Source: a virus. From it: a stretch of 64,000 bases of DNA. The translations under genes and the position numbers were made by a program. Below the pieces are notes generated by a model. The model saw only the letters and a program-made list of their open reading frames with translations. It did not search any database and was not told the origin of the DNA. Numbering within the stretch: the first letter of the stretch is position 1; the number at the start of each line of letters is the position of its first letter. Location: positions 1 to 64,000 of IMG/VR virus record IMGVR_UViG_3300045988_117314. The stretch is one strand, 5' to 3'. This document shows, piece by piece, positions 8,332 to 36,041 of the stretch.

Positions 8332-9141
8332 ATGGAAGACGATCTTATTACAACAAAAGAAGTAGGCGATTATCGCATTAAAGTGTATTATTGCCATGAT
8401 TCAGAATGCCCTATAACTAATTGGGGTTTGTTTGGGTCATTCTTTTTTGAATACTCTGATATGCATCGATTGCATGATGAATGCAATTGGAAAACTTTCT
8501 TCTACGATAACAAGCATGATCTTAGAGATGTTATTGATGCTATTGTAATGAAGCATATAAAACAGAAAGACATTGTAAAATATTTAAAGAAAGGGGAAGC
8601 GAATGGGATCTCATTCACATACAACAGAGGTAGCAATGTATGGGAGTTGAAGCATAAGACAAGTCCATATATAGGTCAAGAGTTTTTACCAGGTGATTTG
8701 AAGGACTTTGATTGCAGAGGAGAATTAATAGAGGATCTGGATGATGAAGACCTGTTAGATATCATATCCAAATATGGAAAAGATGTGGTAGCTATAGAGT
8801 GGTCAACAAGGGGTTATAGTCAAGGTGATTATATAAAAGGGATAGCATACGTTACAAAAGAAAAATATGATAATGAAGTCTGCAACAAAGAAGGAGATTG
8901 GAAAGAAGATTGTGCCAAAATTATAGATAATGAAGTGAAATCCATAGGTATGTGGATGTGGGGAGATGTAAAAGGGTACGTTCTTGAAAAGAAGGTAGCA
9001 TTTACCAAGAAATACAAAGACGAATCAAGAGAGGATGAAGATTGTGAAGAATGGGAAGAGGTTGATTCTTGCTGGGGATGTTATGAGGAGACAGATGAAT
9101 TGATAAAGGAAGTCATGATAGAGAATGGCTTAGAAGAATAG
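8332..9141 (+). CDS. hypothetical protein (269 aa), acidic C-terminus
   Basis: ATG 8332; long ORF. Confidence 0.55.
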   Translation: MEDDLITTKEVGDYRIKVYYCHDSECPITNWGLFGSFFFEYSDMHRLHDECNWKTFFYDNKHDLRDVIDAIVMKHIKQKDIVKYLKKGEANGISFTYNRGSNVWELKHKTSPYIGQEFLPGDLKDFDCRGELIEDLDDEDLLDIISKYGKDVVAIEWSTRGYSQGDYIKGIAYVTKEKYDNEVCNKEGDWKEDCAKIIDNEVKSIGMWMWGDVKGYVLEKKVAFTKKYKDESREDEDCEEWEEVDSCWGCYEETDELIKEVMIENGLEE

Positions 9142-26826: not shown

Positions 26827-27105
26827 ATGGGCAGATCAACAGAGTACTACAGGACTCATCCCGAAGCCAGGAAGAAAAAGGCTAAAAAGGACAAGGAGAT
26901 AAATGCCAGACCGGAACAGAAAGCCAAACGCCGAGAGCTTGGTCGTAAAAACTACGAAACGGACAAGAAGAAGGGTAAGGGCTGGAGAAAAGGAAAGGAT
27001 TGTTCTCATACCAAGAACGGTCTTAGGTATAAATCAGTAAAAGCTAATAGGGGATCCAAATCGGATACGAAAGGTGACAAAAATGCAAGAGGATCTGAAA
27101 AATAA
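26827..27105 (+). CDS. highly basic Lys/Arg-rich small protein, possible nucleic-acid binding
   Basis: ATG 26827. 92 aa, roughly 40% K/R. Confidence 0.4.
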   Translation: MGRSTEYYRTHPEARKKKAKKDKEINARPEQKAKRRELGRKNYETDKKKGKGWRKGKDCSHTKNGLRYKSVKANRGSKSDTKGDKNARGSEK

Positions 27106-28207
27106 AATAGATATAAGAAGGATATTCAAAACCTCTAAACAGGTTATGGAAGAGGCGTATGAGAATATCTTGAAATACAGGCGGGGAGAGCTTATCCCCG
27201 CTAAAACCGGATACGATTATATTGATGAGGCTTTGCTTGGAGGTATTTTTCCTCAGCACGCTATTGCCATAGGAGCCCGGCCATCTGTAGGTAAATCGTA
27301 TGTGGCCCAAAAGATATTGGAAAATGTGATGAATCCGATGATCAACCCGCAAGCAGAAGATTATTTTCTTGTTAATTGCGAGTTCGAAATGAATCCTCAA
27401 GATCTTCTTCTTCGCAGAATGAGCCAGGATATGAAAAAGCGGGCTCCTGAAATATTAAGAAGGCAAGATTCTAATACAGTAGAAGAGATGAGGATGTTTG
27501 AAATCCTTCAAGGTGAAATCAGGAATAATATAATATACATCGATGCTCCGTGTACGGTAAAAGAGTTTGAGGCGGCTGTGTATCATATAGCTACCAAACA
27601 CAAAGACAAACGTCTTATAATATTTAAAGTCGATCATATTGCTTTGATAAAAAGAATGGGGTTAGATCCTAAGTCGGCTATAGATGATTTGGTGGCGGTT
27701 ATGAACGAAGCTAAATTAGTATATAAAAACATATTTTTCCTCATCATATCCCAATTCAACAGAGAGATAGAAGGAAGGATAAAAAGCCCACAAGAGCAGC
27801 CTCCGCGTCTTTCTGATTTTTACCAGTCTGATACGCTGGGTCAGTTATGTACGTTAATGATAGGTTTGCACAATCCTCGTAGGTACGGGCTGGATAAGTA
27901 TATGATATTTGGGAAAGACTGGTATCAGACTCTTGATAGGTTTAAAACTGAAAACAAAACATCATTCAGAACAGCCGGACTGGTGTTTCATCATATACTG
28001 AAGGTAAGGCAAGTTAGTATGGAAGAGCTTACTAATACAATCCACCCAGAGATACTGCCGGGACATGGATGGATGTACGGGGAGGGCGGGACGAAGTTCG
28101 TGAACCCCAACCAGCCGCCGACGCCGCCCAAGCTCTATACTGTGGAAGACGTTACGGACAATCAGGAACAAGAACAAGAGACAAAAGAAGAACAGTCATT
28201 GTATTAA
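27083..28207 (+). CDS. dnaB: replicative DNA helicase, DnaB family (RecA-like C-terminal domain)
   Basis: GYDYIDEALLGGIFPQHAIAIGARPSVGKS (Walker A). LIIFKVDHIALIKR. ATG 27083 with SD AAAGGTGA; the ORF-track GTG start at 27074 is the alternative. Confidence 0.75.
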   Translation: MQEDLKNKIDIRRIFKTSKQVMEEAYENILKYRRGELIPAKTGYDYIDEALLGGIFPQHAIAIGARPSVGKSYVAQKILENVMNPMINPQAEDYFLVNCEFEMNPQDLLLRRMSQDMKKRAPEILRRQDSNTVEEMRMFEILQGEIRNNIIYIDAPCTVKEFEAAVYHIATKHKDKRLIIFKVDHIALIKRMGLDPKSAIDDLVAVMNEAKLVYKNIFFLIISQFNREIEGRIKSPQEQPPRLSDFYQSDTLGQLCTLMIGLHNPRRYGLDKYMIFGKDWYQTLDRFKTENKTSFRTAGLVFHHILKVRQVSMEELTNTIHPEILPGHGWMYGEGGTKFVNPNQPPTPPKLYTVEDVTDNQEQEQETKEEQSLY

Positions 28208-28223
28208 AAAAAAAATAAGAACC

Positions 28224-28826
28224 ATGAGACTAACAGTAGAAGAAAACGAATACCTGATAAGTAAGTTCCTTTTGGTTCTTACTGAGTTTGCAGGGGATGA
28301 AAGAGAGATGTTTTTAATCAACTCCATACATGATAAGGCGGTGGCGGATATGAATTATCGTCTTCCGTCTTTAATAAGCAGAGAACGTAAAAGACGAGTT
28401 ATTGAACTCCTTAAAGAAGGAACCAGAATAATCAAGGACTTTTCCGGCTATGCAGGTGATATGGGTATGATTAACGAATACGATCGCCTAAAGAAAGAAA
28501 TAGGAACCGTCCAAGACCAGCTTGGTGACGTAGAAGGTCAACTTCGGGCAGCAGGAGAAGTTATTAAAAAAGAACTTGATATGATTGCTGACCGAATCAA
28601 AGAAGACCTCCTCGACCGGGAGCTGGCTAAAAGTAATGCTGAGGCTGAAAGAAAAGCCAAAGTAGATCCGAGATACGAAGTAGCTTTAGGTGATTACAAG
28701 GAGATGTTGGAAGTGATTTTTACAACCAGAAACAAGTATTCTACGGTAGATTCTGTACATGATGATCTTCGTCAGTCGGTATCTACCGGTAGAAATTCGA
28801 TTATCAAAGAAGGATACAATAGTTAA
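28224..28826 (+). CDS. coiled-coil protein (200 aa)
   Basis: ATG 28224; heptad-like charged repeats. Confidence 0.5.
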   Translation: MRLTVEENEYLISKFLLVLTEFAGDEREMFLINSIHDKAVADMNYRLPSLISRERKRRVIELLKEGTRIIKDFSGYAGDMGMINEYDRLKKEIGTVQDQLGDVEGQLRAAGEVIKKELDMIADRIKEDLLDRELAKSNAEAERKAKVDPRYEVALGDYKEMLEVIFTTRNKYSTVDSVHDDLRQSVSTGRNSIIKEGYNS

Positions 28827-28841
28827 AAAAAAGGAGGAAAT

Positions 28842-29051
28842 ATGGAAAAGAAGGAATTTAAAGTAGGAGAAGTGTTTGATGCCGGACTTGTAAGATTAAA
28901 ATGTGTGGATGCTCCAGAGCCAGACTTAGGATGTGAAGGATGTATATTTAATGACCACATTACATGCGGGTCGGTAGATGTAGTCGCAGGCCCGTGTAAT
29001 CACGTAGAGAGGGAGGATGGTAAGGATGTTATTTTTATTAAAGCTGATTAG
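28842..29051 (+). CDS. small Cys-rich protein, paralog of 209..490 (GCEGCIFNDH)
   Basis: ATG 28842 with SD AAGGAGGAAAT. CEGCIFND is identical to the 209 paralog. Confidence 0.5.
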   Translation: MEKKEFKVGEVFDAGLVRLKCVDAPEPDLGCEGCIFNDHITCGSVDVVAGPCNHVEREDGKDVIFIKAD

Positions 29052-29053
29052 GC

Positions 29054-29767
29054 ATGTACATCAATTTCAGACAACTTGCAGCATCAGACATGACTCCTAA
29101 TGATCTGGCTAATCTTCTTGCTATAAGACAGAAGGATACGGTTATGATCGAAGCCATGCTGGAAAAAGATGCTGGGAGGTATATAGAGCTTGGCCTGGTT
29201 GAGAAATTAAAATCAGGCGTGATGAGATTGACCAACAAAGGAACGTCTTTTGTGAATTATATAGAGACACCGGAAATGACGGACGAGGTCCTGGAAACGT
29301 TGAAGATTATGATAGGAATGTACGAATCATATTCAAAAGATATAGGTGTCAGCAGAAAAGAAGCGGAATCCAGATTGTGTTGGTTTATGGGTAACACCTC
29401 ATTCAAGAAAGAGGTCATACTTCAGGTAACAGAATCTTATATAGCAGAATCAGGAGATTACACAATGAGCTTATGTAACTTCATATGGAAACCGCCTTCT
29501 CAGGCTTTCTCAGTCCATATGAACCTCAAAAACTCAAAGCTCTTTGACTTAATAGCTGAAAAATTTAAGATCGCTACCGAACCTTATTTGGAGTCTAAGA
29601 AGAATAAGGAAATGGATTGGTTGTTTGCCGTATCTAAATTGCCTACGCCGCCAGCTAAAGGCAATCCGGATTATTTGTTTACCGGAAGTTCTGAAACAGA
29701 CAAAGAGCGATTGAAAAACATAAAAACGTATTTGTTTAACAAAATTAGAAAGCAATGGAAAAAGTAA
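29054..29767 (+). CDS. hypothetical protein (237 aa)
   Basis: ATG 29054. Confidence 0.5.
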   Translation: MYINFRQLAASDMTPNDLANLLAIRQKDTVMIEAMLEKDAGRYIELGLVEKLKSGVMRLTNKGTSFVNYIETPEMTDEVLETLKIMIGMYESYSKDIGVSRKEAESRLCWFMGNTSFKKEVILQVTESYIAESGDYTMSLCNFIWKPPSQAFSVHMNLKNSKLFDLIAEKFKIATEPYLESKKNKEMDWLFAVSKLPTPPAKGNPDYLFTGSSETDKERLKNIKTYLFNKIRKQWKK

Positions 29768-30006
29768 GAATCAGAAAGATAATAGAGGATATAATTATTA
29801 CTCAGTTTCTTAATTCAGAAATAGATATAGTTCATGAAGAAGATGTGTCGTTTAAAGAACTTGGATTAGATTCTGTTGATCAAATTGAACTGGAAGTGAT
29901 GGTGGAACAAAAATTCAATATTGTTATTATTGATTATGATATGGAGACCATCAAAGATATGACTGATCTTGTTTACAAAATAATAACAGAAGGATATGGG
30001 AAGTGA
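29755..30006 (+). CDS. acyl carrier protein-like (phosphopantetheine-binding) small acidic protein
   Basis: LGLDSVDQIELEVMVEQKF matches the ACP DSL attachment-site helix-II motif. 83 aa, acidic. Confidence 0.5.
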   Translation: MEKVRIRKIIEDIIITQFLNSEIDIVHEEDVSFKELGLDSVDQIELEVMVEQKFNIVIIDYDMETIKDMTDLVYKIITEGYGK

Positions 30007-30490
30007 CATAATTTTATGCATGGCTTTAATAGCGTCATTTGCTTTTGTTATACAGTTTTTGTTATCGATATTAGGATCTGATCTGGATACGGATATTGAC
30101 ATTGACAGTGCTTCTGATTTAAGCATGTCTTTGTCGGACATCATATCATTCAAGGGCATAACACATTTTATTCTTGGATATAGCTGGACTACCTACTTTT
30201 CGGGTTCTCATTTAGTAGGGGTTGTGATAGGGTCGTTTTTCTTTATCGTTTTGTTTTACGTATATAAATTACTTCTTAAGTTAAAACAAGAAATGGTGTA
30301 CGAATGTCCGGAAGATTTAAATGGCAGAGAGGTGGAGATAGTGTTTAGATCAGGGAAGAATCATTATATGGTAAATATTTCGAAAAATGGAAGACAAGAG
30401 CAAATGAGAGTAAGATGCTTGTCTGGAAAAACTTACAAAAACGGTGACAAGGTGAATATAAAATACGAAGAAGGAGAACTAAGTATCTAA
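29996..30490 (+). CDS. NfeD-like membrane protein (TM segments plus C-terminal OB-fold-like beta domain)
   Basis: N-terminal hydrophobic helices, then a C-terminal beta-rich ~70 aa (EVEIVFRSGKNHYMVNISKNGRQEQMRVRCLSGKTYKNGDKVNI). Lies immediately upstream of the SPFH gene, as in yqiJ/yqiK-type operons. Confidence 0.55.
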   Translation: MGSDIILCMALIASFAFVIQFLLSILGSDLDTDIDIDSASDLSMSLSDIISFKGITHFILGYSWTTYFSGSHLVGVVIGSFFFIVLFYVYKLLLKLKQEMVYECPEDLNGREVEIVFRSGKNHYMVNISKNGRQEQMRVRCLSGKTYKNGDKVNIKYEEGELSI

Positions 30491-30522
30491 TTTTTTTTAT
30501 CAACAATTAAATTTTAAAAGTT

Positions 30523-32223
30523 ATGACAACAATCATGTACGTGTCAGCTATCTTAGCTGTAGTGATTATTTTGACAATCATCGGAGTCTTATCAAGGTAT
30601 CGTAGATGTAAGCCTAATCAGGTCTTGGTCGTTTATGGTAAGACAGGTGGGGAAAAGAAATCGGCGAAATTATATCATGGTGGAGCGGCATTTGTCTTGC
30701 CTATTATTCAAAGCTATGATGTTTTGTCAATGGAGCCTATGCAAATAGATTGCAAGCTTACCGGTGCTTTGTCATCTCAGAATATTAGAGTAGATGTTCC
30801 TACGACTATTACAGTAGCTATCAGTACAAATCCAGAGATCATGCAAAATGCGGCAGAAAGACTTTTGGGAATGGATACCGAATCTACTGAAAATCTTATT
30901 ACGGACATCGTTTACGGTCAGATGCGTTTGATTATTGCTGAAATGACAATCGAAAAACTTAATTCTGACAGGGATGAGTTTTTGGATAAGGCAAGAAAGA
31001 ACATTGATAACGAGCTTAACAAGTTAGGTCTTTACCTCCTGAACATCAACATCAGTGACATTAGAGACGAAGCCGGTTATATTATGAACCTTGGTAAGGA
31101 GGCTGAAAGTAGGGCTCTGAACGAAGCACAGGCTAATATCGAAGAACAGGAGAAGCTGGGGGCTATTAAGATTGCTGTACAGCAGAAGGAGAAAGAAACG
31201 GCTGTGGCTAATACCAAAAAAGAACAAGAGATTCAAATTGCTTGTACTGAAAAAGAAAAGGAAACAATAGTAGCTGAAACGAAGAAAGAAAAAGAAATAG
31301 CTTTGGCTTTAACCGATAAAGAAAAACAGATTGGTGTAGCTCAAGCAGATAGAGATAGGGCTGCGGTTATCGCAAAAACTTTAACCGACAAGGAATCGGC
31401 GATCGTAAGATCTAAGGCAGAACTTGAAGTAAATAAAGCCGAGGCTGAAAGGATGGAAGAAGTCGGAAAGAATAAGGCTGAAGCTGACAAGGAAGCAGCT
31501 ATAGCAATACAAGACTCTGAAGCTCAGATTAAGAAGGCTGAGGCTGAGAAAAATGCGTCTATAGGATACAACAATGCCCAGAAGGAGGTTGCTGTGTCAG
31601 TATCAGAACTACAGATCATCAAAGCTCAATCAGAGAAGAAGGCCGGAGAAGAAAAAGTTAAATCGGAAGCGGCTGTAAAAACAGCAAAAGAGCTTGCCGA
31701 CAAAGAAGTGGAAGAAGCTAAGGCTAAGAAAGTTCAGGCTGCGCTTAAGGCTGAAAAGATTGTGCCGGCTGAAACCCAGAAGGAAGAGGCTATCTTGCAA
31801 GCTGATGCCGAGGCCGAGAAGATCAAACGCCGGGCTGAGGCTGAGGCATCAGCACATTTGGCAAAAGCTGAGGCAGAGGCAAAAGCTATTCAGATGAAGC
31901 TGGAGGCAGAAGCCGAAGGTAAGAAAAAGTCGTTAATGGCAGAAGCCGACGGATTTAAGGCTATGGTGGAAGCAGCAGAATCCAATCCTCAGATCGCCAT
32001 CCAGTACAAGATGGTTAATCAGTGGAAAGAAATTGCTGGAGAACAGGTTAAAGCATTTGAGCACATTAATCTCGGAAATATCACGGTATTTGACGGCGGT
32101 CAGAACAGTACCGGTAATTTCCTTAACAATGTTGTCAAGACCGTCGCTCCGGCATTGGGAGTCATTGATCAGCTTCCGATTGCAGATACTTTAAAGAAAT
32201 TAAAAGGAGATGACAAAAAATAA
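30523..32223 (+). CDS. SPFH/Band-7 (flotillin / YqiK-like) membrane protein with long Ala/Glu/Lys coiled-coil region
   Basis: N-terminal TM helix, SPFH core (NQVLVVYGKTGG...AERLLGMD...), then ~250 aa of EA/KE-rich coiled coil. 566 aa. Confidence 0.85.
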   Translation: MTTIMYVSAILAVVIILTIIGVLSRYRRCKPNQVLVVYGKTGGEKKSAKLYHGGAAFVLPIIQSYDVLSMEPMQIDCKLTGALSSQNIRVDVPTTITVAISTNPEIMQNAAERLLGMDTESTENLITDIVYGQMRLIIAEMTIEKLNSDRDEFLDKARKNIDNELNKLGLYLLNINISDIRDEAGYIMNLGKEAESRALNEAQANIEEQEKLGAIKIAVQQKEKETAVANTKKEQEIQIACTEKEKETIVAETKKEKEIALALTDKEKQIGVAQADRDRAAVIAKTLTDKESAIVRSKAELEVNKAEAERMEEVGKNKAEADKEAAIAIQDSEAQIKKAEAEKNASIGYNNAQKEVAVSVSELQIIKAQSEKKAGEEKVKSEAAVKTAKELADKEVEEAKAKKVQAALKAEKIVPAETQKEEAILQADAEAEKIKRRAEAEASAHLAKAEAEAKAIQMKLEAEAEGKKKSLMAEADGFKAMVEAAESNPQIAIQYKMVNQWKEIAGEQVKAFEHINLGNITVFDGGQNSTGNFLNNVVKTVAPALGVIDQLPIADTLKKLKGDDKK

Positions 32224-32446
32224 ATACAATGGCCCAAGGTTACACTTGGGCCTAATTGAAGAAATAAAAGCAGCATTCATAGATTTCCTGCCTGCGGGAA
32301 CAGTGATTTTAAGTGCTTTACTAATTACGATATTTTTAACATGGATTTTGGACAAGATTTAGAACCAGAAGAACTTACCGGGCATTATGATCAGTGTTAT
32401 GGAATTGATTTTGAAACAGAAGAAGAGGAGGATGAAGAATATGACG

Positions 32447-32746
32447 GATGAGGAATTTGCATTAGATAATAAGAAAAAAGTTGTTGTAAGAAAAAGAATA
32501 TCCTATTTAAGCAAAGGGGATAAAGTGTGGATCGTGTCTTCCGACGGCTACCTGCTACACACGGACGTCGTTCGGCGGGACCGGGGCCGATCTTATGTGG
32601 ATATAGACGGGATACTGTATTGGAAGCGAGGATTAGATGGCAAGCATCGTAATCGTAATAACTACATGCAGTTTGCCATGACACCAGAAGACGGTAAGAA
32701 GTATGTCGTATATTACCCGGAAGGATTTAAAGACAATGACTTATGA
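32447..32746 (+). CDS. hypothetical basic protein (99 aa)
   Basis: ATG 32447 preceded by strong SD GAGGAGGA. The ORF-track start at 32387 is less likely. Confidence 0.45.
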   Translation, partial: DEEFALDNKKKVVVRKRISYLSKGDKVWIVSSDGYLLHTDVVRRDRGRSYVDIDGILYWKRGLDGKHRNRNNYMQFAMTPEDGKKYVVYYPEGFKDNDL

Positions 32747-33762
32747 TGGTCCCGGAAACGCATTTGCTATATAAGGAGTTTAATGGTGTAAAACGTCTTG
32801 CCATATCTTATTCCCAGATAGATACGTTTCTTACCTGTCCAATGAAATGGTATAAGACTTACGTAGAGGGCAAAAGGTCTACGGAAAAACAAGAAGCTAC
32901 GTCTTATGGTACGGTTATCCATAAGACACTGGAATACTTCTTTAAGAACGGAAGACAGCCTTCTGGTAAAGACCTTGGAGAAGCGATAAGTTACTATGCT
33001 TACCAAGAAGACATACCTTGGCAATCACCGGAAAATATGATGATAGCCATGAAGCAATCCGGGGAGCTTCTTGCTTGGATTGTGGATCTATTTAAAAAAG
33101 ACGGCAATAGGTTTATGATAGCTGATAGTGATCTTAATCCCTGCGAGAAACTTATCAGGTACGGCGCCATAGTTGGAGTCGAAGAAGATTTTGTGCTGCC
33201 GTACCGTCTTCCTAAGCCTGTTGATATAAATGGGGTAATTCATACCCATGTGTACATAGTAGGATCAGTGGATCTTCATCTGGCTATAAAAAGCAAGAAC
33301 GTAGTTCACCATTATGTCATAGATTGGAAATCAGGAAATAAGGTTTTTGATTCTAAGAAATTGGAAACGAATTTACAGCATCCTATATATTCATTTTACA
33401 TCTATAGAAGATATGGTGGGGTTCTACCAGATATGAACATCTATTTCTTTACCAGGACCAGGCAGTACCAAAAGGTTAAGGTAGATGAAGAGCGTAAAAC
33501 AAAATCTATAGAAATGCTAAATGACACTTTATCTAAAATGTATGATTTTGAAGATAATAGTGTAAAATCATTTCAAGCGTACATCCAGGGAGCAGAAGGA
33601 GCCAGGTATAGCAAGCGGCGTGCCACCCTAAGCCAGCCTGTTCCGCAAAACAAGCTGCCCTGCCCGTCGGCACTGTGTTATTATTGTGACTTTGGATTAC
33701 ATAACAAAAACGAATGCCCTTTCTCTTCGGATTGGGATCCGTCTAAAAAGATAAAGCGATGA
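32743..33762 (+). CDS. PD-(D/E)xK exonuclease, Cas4/RecB-family-like with Cys cluster
   Basis: SYSQIDTFLTCPMKWY. GTVIHKTLE. VIDWKSG...LQHPIYSFY. C-terminal CPSALCYYC...ECPF. Confidence 0.65.
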   Translation: MMVPETHLLYKEFNGVKRLAISYSQIDTFLTCPMKWYKTYVEGKRSTEKQEATSYGTVIHKTLEYFFKNGRQPSGKDLGEAISYYAYQEDIPWQSPENMMIAMKQSGELLAWIVDLFKKDGNRFMIADSDLNPCEKLIRYGAIVGVEEDFVLPYRLPKPVDINGVIHTHVYIVGSVDLHLAIKSKNVVHHYVIDWKSGNKVFDSKKLETNLQHPIYSFYIYRRYGGVLPDMNIYFFTRTRQYQKVKVDEERKTKSIEMLNDTLSKMYDFEDNSVKSFQAYIQGAEGARYSKRRATLSQPVPQNKLPCPSALCYYCDFGLHNKNECPFSSDWDPSKKIKR

Positions 33763-33932
33763 AATACGAGGACGTTCAAAAGTTAAGAACAAAATACCGG
33801 CAAGATCCGGAAGTTATAAACGTAGAATACATGAGAGACGTTGCTGTAAGATGCGGGAATTTCAAGAAAGCGTTTGAGCTTCAGGAAAGACTGGAGGATA
33901 TATGGTTTAACTACTTAAAAGAGGTGCAATGA
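33759..33932 (+). CDS. unannotated small protein (57 aa), ATGA-coupled at both ends
   Basis: ATG 33759 overlaps the upstream stop (ATGA), and its own stop overlaps ATG 33929 (ATGA). Below the 60-aa cutoff of the ORF track. Confidence 0.4.
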   Translation: MKYEDVQKLRTKYRQDPEVINVEYMRDVAVRCGNFKKAFELQERLEDIWFNYLKEVQ

Positions 33933-34249
33933 AAGAAGTATTGATAGCAGGAGCAGCGGCCTTTTTATTATTATACTTGTTTGTAACGATTCTTATAAAA
34001 ATAAGCATGGCAATAGATCGGTATAAGATGAAGAAGAAGACCGACAAAATAAAAGTCGGTCAAAGATACGAATACGAAGGCTACTTCATGGATCCATTTG
34101 AAAGAGGCAAGCATGTGATTAAGATATTAGACATAAAGGAAGGGTTCGCTCTGTACGAGTACGGAAAAAGCCCAACTTTATTATTTTCTATGGAGCTTGA
34201 AGATATTGTTAAAAGATATGTTTTAATTACTGATGTTAAACACAAGTAA
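33929..34249 (+). CDS. membrane-anchored small protein (106 aa)
   Basis: ATG 33929 with SD AGAGGTG; N-terminal TM. Confidence 0.45.
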   Translation: MKEVLIAGAAAFLLLYLFVTILIKISMAIDRYKMKKKTDKIKVGQRYEYEGYFMDPFERGKHVIKILDIKEGFALYEYGKSPTLLFSMELEDIVKRYVLITDVKHK

Positions 34250-34252
34250 GTC

Positions 34253-34630
34253 ATGAAAAAAGAAGTTACAATCAAGGAAGATATGGTTGCGTTTTATAAA
34301 AATGCAGGAAAGGAACTATGGATTTATAACGGACTTTTCAGAAACAAGGTATTGTCTATAAAAAAAGATAAAGCCATTATCATGTGTGAAACTGATGCTG
34401 AATATGCTGTACTGATAGAAGATAATCAGTTTATTGCCGTAGCAAAAAACATGGATTATGATTACTGCTGCGCATTCACATTAGGTAATGCCGAGGCTTA
34501 TGGAGATCGTATGGGCATATCGTGCAGTGTATGCTTGCTCGAAGATAATGAGAATAAAGCAAGGGAAATGTTGAAAGAGGCGATAATAGAACTTTCAAAA
34601 AACAGTAAAATAGATTGCGATGGGCTTTGA
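34253..34630 (+). CDS. hypothetical protein (125 aa)
   Basis: ATG 34253. Confidence 0.5.
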   Translation: MKKEVTIKEDMVAFYKNAGKELWIYNGLFRNKVLSIKKDKAIIMCETDAEYAVLIEDNQFIAVAKNMDYDYCCAFTLGNAEAYGDRMGISCSVCLLEDNENKAREMLKEAIIELSKNSKIDCDGL

Positions 34631-36041
34631 ACTTAGACCTTACCAAAAAGAGGCAGTAGATGCCGGACTTAAGTTTCTTACAGGAAGATCTAAGAAGCCT
34701 GGCATAATCGTAGCTCCATGCGGATGTGGAAAGAGCCTTCTGATATCCAAGATAGCACATGAAATAAATAGACCGACATTAGTATTACAGCCCTCAAAAG
34801 AGATTCTGGAGCAGAATTATGCAAAGGCCGTATCATTCGGTTCTAAACCTACTATATATTCTGCTTCATGTGGTATAAAGGAACTGTCGGCTATGACTTA
34901 TGCTACACTTAAAAGCATAAAGAAAGACGTAGCAAGGTTGAAAGATATAGGGATAGACACCTTATTGGTGGACGAATGCCACTCGGGGTATTCCCCTGAG
35001 GAAGGTTCTGAATTTATGGAGTTTATGAACGGGTTTCCAGAGGCGAAGGTGCTGGGCTTCACCGCCACTCCCTGCCGACTCAGGGCCTACAGTTCCATGC
35101 TGGAAGGAAACTACAGCAAGCTCAATATGCTGACGAAAGACGAGCATAACTTCTTCAAGAAAATAGTTCATGTAACTCAAATACAAGAACTAACCTCTCA
35201 AGGGTTTTGGTGTCCACTTAAGTACGAACGATGGTCGTTTGATGAATCGGCTCTGATGTTAAACAGTACCGGGGCTGAATACACCAACGAATCTATTAAA
35301 GAAAGTATTGTAAGAAATGGCTTAAACAACTCTATCTACAAGCGCCTTCTTCAACTTATGAACGAACGTAAAGCCATTTTGGTTTGCATGGATTCTATCG
35401 AATCATGTAATAGAATATCAGAGTTCATGAATGCCAGGATGGGAGCCATAACCGGTGTCGTAACATCGCTAACAACCAAAAAGAAAAGAGAGCAAATCAT
35501 ATCAGATTTTAAAGAAGGTAAGTTGAAGGTGGTTTTTAATTATTCAACGCTTGCTACCGGATTTGATTTTCCTGAACTTGATTGCGTGATGTTTGGTCGC
35601 CCAACGTTCTCATATTCAACATATTACCAAATATTGGGCCGCGCCGTACGCATCCATCCTGACAAGAAAGAGGCACTGATAGTTGATTGCTGCGACAACA
35701 TGAGGCGTTTCGGTCGGATAGAAGACCTGACAATCGAACAATTCCCTTCTAAGGGCTGGTGTATGTTTGCCGGCGATCAACTTCTGTCCAATATAAGGAT
35801 GGGTGATATTATTACCAAAGACGAGATCCTTCGCCGGGCAGCCTCGCTTAAATCTGTGAATGGAGATGGTAGGAGAGAAGACGATCTTGACAGTATAATA
35901 ATGTGGTTTGGAAAATATGAAGGAATTAGATTCAAGGACATACCGGTGTCGTATTTTAGGTTCTTGGCTGAGAATATGGCAGTAAAACCAGGAGATAGGA
36001 AAGAAAAGATTATCGAATATTATAATAGGATAAAGGCATGA
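34620..36041 (+). CDS. SF2 DExH-box DNA/RNA helicase (type III restriction Res-like / phage helicase)
   Basis: LRPYQKEAV. Walker A APCGCGKS. LLVDECH (DExH). FTATP. QILGRAVR (motif VI). Confidence 0.8.
   Translation: MGFELRPYQKEAVDAGLKFLTGRSKKPGIIVAPCGCGKSLLISKIAHEINRPTLVLQPSKEILEQNYAKAVSFGSKPTIYSASCGIKELSAMTYATLKSIKKDVARLKDIGIDTLLVDECHSGYSPEEGSEFMEFMNGFPEAKVLGFTATPCRLRAYSSMLEGNYSKLNMLTKDEHNFFKKIVHVTQIQELTSQGFWCPLKYERWSFDESALMLNSTGAEYTNESIKESIVRNGLNNSIYKRLLQLMNERKAILVCMDSIESCNRISEFMNARMGAITGVVTSLTTKKKREQIISDFKEGKLKVVFNYSTLATGFDFPELDCVMFGRPTFSYSTYYQILGRAVRIHPDKKEALIVDCCDNMRRFGRIEDLTIEQFPSKGWCMFAGDQLLSNIRMGDIITKDEILRRAASLKSVNGDGRREDDLDSIIMWFGKYEGIRFKDIPVSYFRFLAENMAVKPGDRKEKIIEYYNRIKA

Follow-up and report, generated by a model that had tools for sequence, protein, structure and literature searches.

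The window analysed here, a stretch of 64,000 nucleotides (nt) covering positions 1 to 64,000 of the IMG/VR virus record IMGVR_UViG_3300045988_117314, contains three consecutive plus-strand genes that encode an acyl carrier protein (ACP), an NfeD-like membrane protein and a flotillin. The list of open reading frames (ORFs) bears out the coordinates given to these genes in an initial annotation of the sequence. The ACP gene lies at 29755..30006 and encodes an acidic protein of 83 amino acids (aa) with a GLDS motif that includes Ser39, the gene for the NfeD2 (YuaF/YqiJ)-type flotillin partner occupies 29996..30490 (164 aa) and the gene for the SPFH2-type flotillin 30523..32223 (566 aa). The ACP and partner reading frames share 11 nt, and the flotillin start is located 33 nt downstream of the partner gene. 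The reading we prefer, with a probability of roughly 60%, is that the NfeD-like and flotillin genes constitute a two-gene NfeD2-flotillin (SPFH2) operon that was captured from a Bacteroidales-type chromosome and has been kept in a block of phage replication genes as a functional but dispensable accessory module.

The cassette belongs to a common gut phage lineage

The cassette is phage-encoded. Positions 27000-36000 of the window align over the whole 9 kb, at 94.7% identity, with the complete genome of 'phage csAssE-Sib' (OR575929, 151,256 bp, human gut), in which the three genes carry the labels 'acyl carrier protein', 'transmembrane protein' and 'flotillin family protein'. Gene order is the same in both sequences, leading from a DnaB-like helicase gene through ACP, transmembrane protein and flotillin to a PD-(D/E)XK exonuclease and a helicase. 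The remaining OR575929 genes encode terminase, portal, capsid, ring and muzzle proteins, a diversity-generating retroelement and tRNAs. This order is shared by all 80 IMG/VR contigs retrieved via the flotillin, and more than 150 viral contigs carry the cassette. Since a complete phage genome and the IMG/VR contigs agree in gene order, the objection that the cassette might be host DNA beside a prophage fails, and its earlier assignment to a virus stands.

The phage lineage, with genomes of ~150 kb, is very common in the human gut. The family of the partner protein is found on 254 contigs of IMG/VR (2.9 million contigs), 80 of which were kept after ranking by their resemblance to a bacterial homologue; with one exception (L175, which looks bacterial), these 80 belong to a csAssE-Sib-like lineage. 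The exact NfeD-like protein of the window is present on at least 1000 contigs. The closest cultured relatives of the capsid protein (34% identity) are those of the Cellulophaga phages phi17:2 and phi4:1, which have genomes of 145 kb and infect Bacteroidota, and the hosts of the lineage are presumed to be Bacteroidales. A 'crAss-like' label, implied by the record name, could not be confirmed. GenBank and IMG records already carry annotations for the cassette genes, and literature searches found no paper on crAss-like phages and flotillin, on phage-encoded flotillin or on ACPs in crAss-like phages. The 'Perkons' paper was considered and set aside; it concerns a prophage inserting into host floA and not a phage-encoded flotillin.

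The third gene encodes a flotillin rarely found in phages

The product of the third gene passes the cut-offs of both the Band_7 profile (7.6e-26, 91.7 bits, cut-off 23.6) and the Flot profile (1e-9, 39 bits, cut-off 27). It is composed of an N-terminal membrane anchor with one hydrophobic segment within residues 1-28, an SPFH domain (residues 30-211), a coiled coil (about 212-470) and a C-terminal Flot domain (450-559). Alanine, glutamate and lysine make up 56% of residues 212-470, which contain a single proline. The initial annotation had described an SPFH/flotillin protein with an N-terminal hydrophobic segment and an Ala/Glu/Lys-rich coiled coil, and each of these elements was recovered. 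At E<=0.001 the only matches in the PDB are human flotillin-2 and flotillin-1 (1e-22 and 6e-19, respectively; entries 9bq2, 9l3g and 1win). The protein reaches 145 bits against the NCBIfam FloT equivalog (cut-off 700), which makes it no FloT orthologue, and matches no PHROG family. In three homologues on long contigs (P0146, P0148 and P0152) the coiled coil is shortened in frame by about 70-100 residues at ~320-440; such length variants, if real, would alter the height of any SPFH cage.

The suggestion that the cassette is not a standard phage module agrees with the database record. Only 11 of 50,697 GenBank phage records match the flotillin, a single one of them closely, which on this census confirms phage-encoded flotillins as rare.

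The initial annotation also drew an analogy to HflK/HflC, FtsH and CII, under which the protein would be an HflK/C-like regulator of the host FtsH protease controlling a lysis-lysogeny or stability switch of the phage. SPFH proteins of other subfamilies do bind FtsH (PMC2636767). The analogy is nevertheless weak: HflK/C-type proteins are absent from the PDB matches, whose only members are flotillin-1 and -2, the locus holds a single SPFH gene of the flotillin type with a Flot C-terminal domain and an NfeD2-type partner, and CII-like or lysogeny genes were not seen in the annotated OR575929 genome. We consider regulation of FtsH highly improbable.

The middle protein is an NfeD2-type flotillin partner by fold, topology and synteny

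We accept the middle protein as an NfeD2 (YuaF/YqiJ)-type flotillin partner on the basis of fold, topology and synteny and not of a profile match. The earlier claim that the second gene is NfeD-like holds in these three respects and fails with regard to the Pfam NfeD profile. Profile searches that recognize the flotillin (Band_7/SPFH) and the ACP (PP-binding, see below) leave the NfeD-like protein without a Pfam match at E<=0.1, NfeD PF01957 included, and no meaningful match was obtained in PHROG, NCBIfam, PADLOC or PDB sequences. Weak matches to SpoIIAA (E 0.006-0.13) were dismissed as chance. NfeD2 (YuaF/YqiJ) proteins, the partners of SPFH2 flotillins, have been described as 'minimally conserved NfeD homologs' that can be identified from their topology, their beta domain and their place in the operon (PMC2636767).

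From its N-terminus the protein comprises a transmembrane (TM) helix, an acidic D-x-D-x-D loop, an SFKGxxHF motif, two further TM helices and a C-terminal beta domain resembling the oligonucleotide/oligosaccharide-binding (OB) fold. An AlphaFold (AF2) model built with seven homologues has a mean predicted local distance difference test score (pLDDT) of 74, with values of 83-90 in the C-terminal part, and places a TM helix at residues 2-25, a disordered acidic loop at 28-46, helices at 52-69 and 72-101 and a six-stranded beta domain at 112-163. Hydropathy agrees with the modelled topology. The protein shows the architecture of NfeD2 proteins, namely N-terminal hydrophobic stretches, a short linker and a C-terminal soluble all-beta (OB) domain in a chain of about 140-210 aa. 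The predicted fold of its C-terminal domain is like that of solved NfeD domains, and its gene shares an operon with an SPFH gene.

When 1.84 billion representatives were scanned in full with HMMER, 408 members of the partner family emerged, which have in common an IQFILS helix, the D-x-D-x-D acidic loop and an SFKGxxHFxxGF motif. One of 64 family members matches Pfam NfeD PF01957 (6e-5). A viral homologue in BFVD, 35% identical to the window protein, carries the name 'NfeD-like C-terminal domain-containing protein', and the exact window protein appears in nr under the name 'Protein of unknown function (DUF1449)', DUF1449 being the family name of E. coli YqiJ, which partners the flotillin YqiK.

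The NfeD-like/flotillin pair has its origin in Bacteroidales chromosomes

A genome scan with the partner-protein motif, limited to one genome per species, returned 80 loci, nearly all of them in Bacteroides, Phocaeicola, Parabacteroides and Prevotella/Xylanibacter. At 80/80 of these loci an NfeD-like homologue (32-41% identical) is directly followed by a flotillin, with a spacer of 10-30 nt. The Bacteroidales flotillins are 62-67% identical to the phage flotillin over about 557 residues by tblastn and 66-70% identical over the full length by alignment; in the same alignment they are 71-93% identical among themselves. In Phocaeicola vulgatus ATCC 8482 the pair is located between ybeY and mnmG, a housekeeping context. 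The Bacteroidales and phage pairs consist of the same two genes in the same order and with a similarly short spacer (10-30 nt in the bacteria), and their partner proteins (34-42% identical by alignment) share the IQFILS, D-x-D-x-D and SFKGxxHF motifs. In contrast, the phage copy lies in a replication block, is preceded by an ACP gene and followed by a small ORF, resembles phage DNA in base composition, branches as a clade of its own and is devoid of the Pro/Lys-rich C-terminal tail seen in the P. vulgatus protein.

A second phage lineage, represented by contig L087 (about 76% identical DNA), keeps the order ACP, NfeD, flotillin and small ORF. In neighbour-joining trees of both proteins, the window and L087 lineages together form a sister clade to the Bacteroidales sequences. 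GC content at third codon positions (GC3) is 0.36-0.40 in the phage copies, as in the neighbouring phage genes, and 0.41-0.64 in the bacterial homologues, and the capture is therefore old. The joint phage clade in both trees, combined with the phage-like GC3, leads us to conclude that the NfeD-like and flotillin genes entered the phage jointly from a Bacteroidales-type genome, prior to the split of the window and L087 lineages.

A metagenome-assembled genome of the Bacteroidaceae (CAAFAI01; L092 and L095) contains two paralogous NfeD-like/flotillin pairs, one of the 'standard' type and one of a divergent P. vulgatus type, which are about 72% identical. Some Bacteroidaceae genomes hold both.

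The pair is under purifying selection and the flotillin gene is polymorphic

Where present, the NfeD-like/flotillin pair is under strong purifying selection. Among about 80 related contigs of 92-100% nucleotide identity, the ratio of nonsynonymous to synonymous divergence (dN/dS) is 0.056 for the NfeD-like gene and 0.036 for the flotillin gene, at a proportion of synonymous differences (pS) of 0.15-0.19. Replication genes of the same phages give similar ratios (DnaB-like helicase 0.051, exonuclease 0.053).

Several observations weigh against the pair being a functional operon retained as such. In a sample anchored on the N-terminal motif of the partner, and hence unbiased towards flotillin, 14 of 77 assessable related contigs (about 18%, a rough frequency as many contigs come from one compiled dataset) cleanly lack the segment 30496..32331 (no strand), which comprises the flotillin gene and the greater part of the small ORF. 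The 14 flotillin-less contigs fall into five junction classes, with 30495/32332 found seven times, 30493/32335 four times and three classes once each. Chimeric partner-protein products in metagenomes led to contigs with two different deletions of ~1.6 kb, one at about 30337-31962 (two samples) and one at about 30372-31948, both of which remove the OB domain and most of the flotillin. In all, at least seven independent flotillin deletions are present. Their number and the absence of flotillin from ~18% of related contigs argue that it is not needed for viability; flotillin might be of use under certain conditions or be decaying slowly. Moreover, the NfeD-like gene is intact in 14/14 flotillin-less contigs, which a strictly pairwise function would not predict. 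The NfeD-like protein fails the Pfam NfeD profile, and hhalign of its family profile (64 members) with E. coli YqiJ gave an alignment that is in register but falls short of significance (E 0.05); a profile comparison with YuaF gave E 0.56. The overlap of the ACP and NfeD-like genes is kept in two diverged lineages, those of the window and of L087, leaving some room for a functional link to the ACP. Lastly, the benefit to the phage proposed below is purely conjectural.

That the pair is passenger DNA, a host fragment acquired by chance, conferring no benefit and in the course of being lost, would fit the independent deletions, the contigs without flotillin and the in-frame length variants of the coiled coil. 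It fits poorly with strong purifying selection on both genes over substantial synonymous divergence, with a codon composition that has drifted to the phage's own, with retention of the pair in two diverged lineages and with a partner gene that is intact in every flotillin-less genome, and we judge it to be clearly unlikely.

Accessory genes with presence/absence polymorphism, at a spot that also takes up a mobile-element RNA insertion (see below), are typical of conflict 'morons'. Together with the rarity of flotillin in phages this could indicate that the pair remodels the host membrane, either for superinfection exclusion at the stage of entry or DNA injection or to counter a membrane-acting host defence. 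However, the very low dN/dS of the pair is unlike that of fast-evolving conflict genes and the pair represents a close copy of a housekeeping chromosomal operon. In addition, no literature on flotillin-based exclusion was found, and none of the ACP, the NfeD-like protein, the flotillin and the small ORF matched a defence model of PADLOC-DB at E<=0.1. A role in conflict is, in our estimate, rather unlikely. Superinfection exclusion is thus a speculative suggestion, as is the scaffold for a membrane replication site that the initial annotation also put forward.

The intact NfeD-like gene in every flotillin-less genome suggests that the partner may also work with a host flotillin, which would make the host's flotillin cages a possible target of the protein. 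An extended version of this idea, in which the NfeD-like protein, possibly with the translationally overlapped ACP, acts on host cages and re-programmes the host membrane scaffold while the phage flotillin is an optional co-adapted subunit, is tentative and fairly unlikely. If true, the NfeD-like protein would be a viral modulator of the bacterial SPFH microdomain system, with the flotillin-plus and flotillin-minus variants as ready genetic controls.

The ACP is a separate accessory gene

As proposed from its phosphopantetheine-site motif, the product of the first gene is ACP-like. It passes the cut-off of Pfam PP-binding PF00550 (26.8 bits, cut-off 20.8) and matches PHROG 5934 (phrog_5934, 'acyl carrier protein') at 2e-8, and 65/65 matches in a PDB sequence search are ACPs. 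The motif KELGLDSVDQIELEVMVEQKFN aligns onto the DSL helix-II region of these matches with the DSL serine in register, and Ser39 of the GLDS motif aligns with Ser36 of E. coli AcpP. Conservation of this serine, a further expectation of the initial annotation, was found throughout: every intact phage variant has it, as does the L087 copy, whose identity is 34%. Against the NCBIfam AcpP equivalog models the best score is 29.9 bits, far under every cut-off (66-106), and the phage protein is therefore to be placed, on these scores, in the ACP family but not among orthologues of the housekeeping AcpP. Identity to E. coli AcpP is 26% for the window ACP and 46% for the L087 ACP. Other ACPs of PHROG 5934, for example g153 of the Yersinia jumbo phage fHe-Yen9-04, are likewise small, acidic PP-binding proteins with a DSL serine encoded by an auxiliary or 'moron' gene; in contrast to the window ACP, to which they are very distant (41% identity over 49 aa), they do not lie beside an NfeD-flotillin pair.

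The initial annotation regarded ACP, NfeD and flotillin as one unit, a view that did not survive comparison. The ancestral unit is the NfeD2-flotillin operon, which in bacteria consists of the pair only, and the ACP lies outside it. The ACP gene is weakly constrained, with a dN/dS of 0.34 in the sample of ~80 related contigs, and is lost or kept independently of flotillin. A premature stop or frameshift interrupts it in 8/80 genomes, all of which keep intact NfeD-like and flotillin genes, while it is intact in 14/14 flotillin-less contigs. Retention of the ACP where flotillin is lost means that a functional link between the two is not supported. The ACP is consequently best described as a separate, fast-evolving, AcpP-derived accessory gene in an operon-like position with no demonstrable functional tie to flotillin.

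Gene order and overlapping ACP/NfeD frames that persist in two lineages despite an identity of only 34% between their ACPs, the invariant phosphopantetheine-site serine and the continued association of ACP and NfeD in flotillin-less genomes would all be compatible with a single ACP-NfeD-flotillin machine in which the ACP delivers an acyl group to NfeD, to flotillin or to a microdomain lipid. Such a machine is at odds with the result that tblastn finds no ACP match at the 80 bacterial loci (upstream genes were read in P. vulgatus only), with the contrast between a dN/dS of 0.34 and values of 0.04-0.06 for the neighbours, with truncated ACPs beside an intact pair and with the distinct composition of the ACP gene (GC 0.29). 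Furthermore, no phosphopantetheinyl transferase, acyl-ACP synthetase, acyltransferase or fatty-acid enzyme is found among the annotations of the 151-kb phage genome. Taken together, this renders the single machine quite improbable.

The ACP gene is AT-richer than all of its neighbours, with a GC3 of 0.24 and a GC content well under the 0.34-0.42 of the surrounding genes. This composition is consistent with a separate origin or with relaxed constraint.

A membrane scaffold role is proposed by analogy to bacterial flotillin systems

Building on the gene identities, the phage location, the bacterial origin of the pair, the purifying selection and the presence/absence polymorphism, all of which the analysis shows, we infer that the phage pair assembles at the membrane and is of benefit to the phage. 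The flotillin would anchor in the inner membrane of the host via its N-terminal hydrophobic segment during infection, and its long coiled coil would mediate oligomerization to an SPFH cage or microdomain. The NfeD-like partner may bind and stabilize the flotillin through its OB domain, a step modelled on bacterial FloA-NfeD. Expressed with the replication genes, the pair would supplement or replace the flotillin system of the host, and membrane proteins and membrane organization could stay functional in the exploited cell.

In Staphylococcus aureus, FloA forms an oligomeric scaffold, NfeD stabilizes the flotillin oligomer and the FloA-NfeD complex confines and stabilizes unfolded membrane proteins in an ATP-independent manner (Ukleja et al., 2024, PMC11222466). 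As in the phage, flotillin and NfeD partner are encoded in one operon, whereas FloA is a short SPFH protein of another subfamily than the phage flotillin. The NfeD2-SPFH2 operons yuaF-floT of B. subtilis and yqiJ-yqiK of E. coli (Hinderhofer et al., 2009, PMC2636767) encode partners of marginal similarity to the phage partner. Among phages, the lytic Vibrio phage KIT04 resembles the csAssE-Sib-type phages in carrying a flotillin-type SPFH protein ('flotillin family protein') among early or accessory genes, but its flotillin shows an identity of only 29% across half of the protein, the annotation has no ACP nearby and the upstream gene encodes 82 aa.

The locus does not represent a new kind of system but recognizable genes of a known operon kind in a new setting. 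Beyond the existing annotation, the analysis identifies the 'transmembrane protein' as NfeD2-type, traces the pair to Bacteroidales, shows that pair and ACP differ in the selection acting on them and documents a natural presence/absence polymorphism. Opinions still differ on what bacterial flotillins and their NfeD partners do, and a phage with natural flotillin deletions offers a tractable comparison for the role of the scaffold under viral takeover. Membrane organization also joins the list of host-derived auxiliary functions in gut phages.

The small ORF and neighbouring sequences are variable

Downstream of the flotillin, a small plus-strand ORF at 32210..32362 encodes 50 aa with a C-terminal hydrophobic segment and shares 14 nt with the 3' end of the flotillin gene up to its stop. 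The initial annotation had proposed a hydrophobic mini-ORF with a TTG start at 32246 as a fourth component of the cassette; this TTG is internal to the longer ORF, which starts with ATG at 32210, and a 10-bp deletion in 26/78 related genomes yields a 34-aa product devoid of the hydrophobic tail. The small ORF has a dN/dS of 0.35 and is hypothetical in the OR575929 annotation, and L087 holds a 52-aa ORF with similar features at the equivalent position. We regard it as a doubtful, variable component. A perfect 8-bp GC-rich hairpin (GGCCCAAG...CTTGGGCC) lies within the small ORF at 32231-32252, 8 nt past the flotillin stop, and this stretch may act at the RNA level, in stability or attenuation, instead of coding for protein.

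A non-coding insertion of ~355 bp separates the small ORF from the next gene in 13/78 related contigs; the window is free of it. The insertion point corresponds to ~32398-32400 of the window. In L250, the only contig tested, the insertion (seen at 8403-8642) is a full-length HEARO RNA (Rfam RF02033, 104 bits), an RNA linked to IscB/HNH elements, with no adjacent IscB ORF. In the HEARO-bearing relatives the next gene (32387-32746) begins with MELILKQ at window position 32399, which suggests that the annotated start at 32387 is too early. In the flotillin-less relatives the NfeD stop is directly followed by ATGGATTTTGG..., the start of an unannotated, highly acidic ORF of 36 aa (MDFGQDLEPEE...) located at 32341-32451 of the window.

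Upstream, the ACP frame shares 13 nt with a gene at 29054-29767 that encodes 237 aa. This protein was considered as a partner enzyme of the ACP and rejected; it has no Pfam or PHROG match, and a weak match to PADLOC LmuC (E 0.002) was judged to be chance. Its single-sequence AlphaFold model reaches a pLDDT of only 36, and no homologues beyond its own lineage were found in the phage database. Promoter and terminator scans gave nothing above background, with a scan tool that does not cover Bacteroidota promoters. Directly 3' of the DnaB-like helicase gene, at 28224-28826, lies a gene for an exceptionally conserved 200-aa coiled-coil protein that has no family match, a dN/dS of 0.006 at a pS of 0.13 and intact copies in 74/74 cases. 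Further along the window, GC skew and AT skew both flip sign near ~42000, where the plus-strand block of replication and accessory genes gives way to minus-strand genes.

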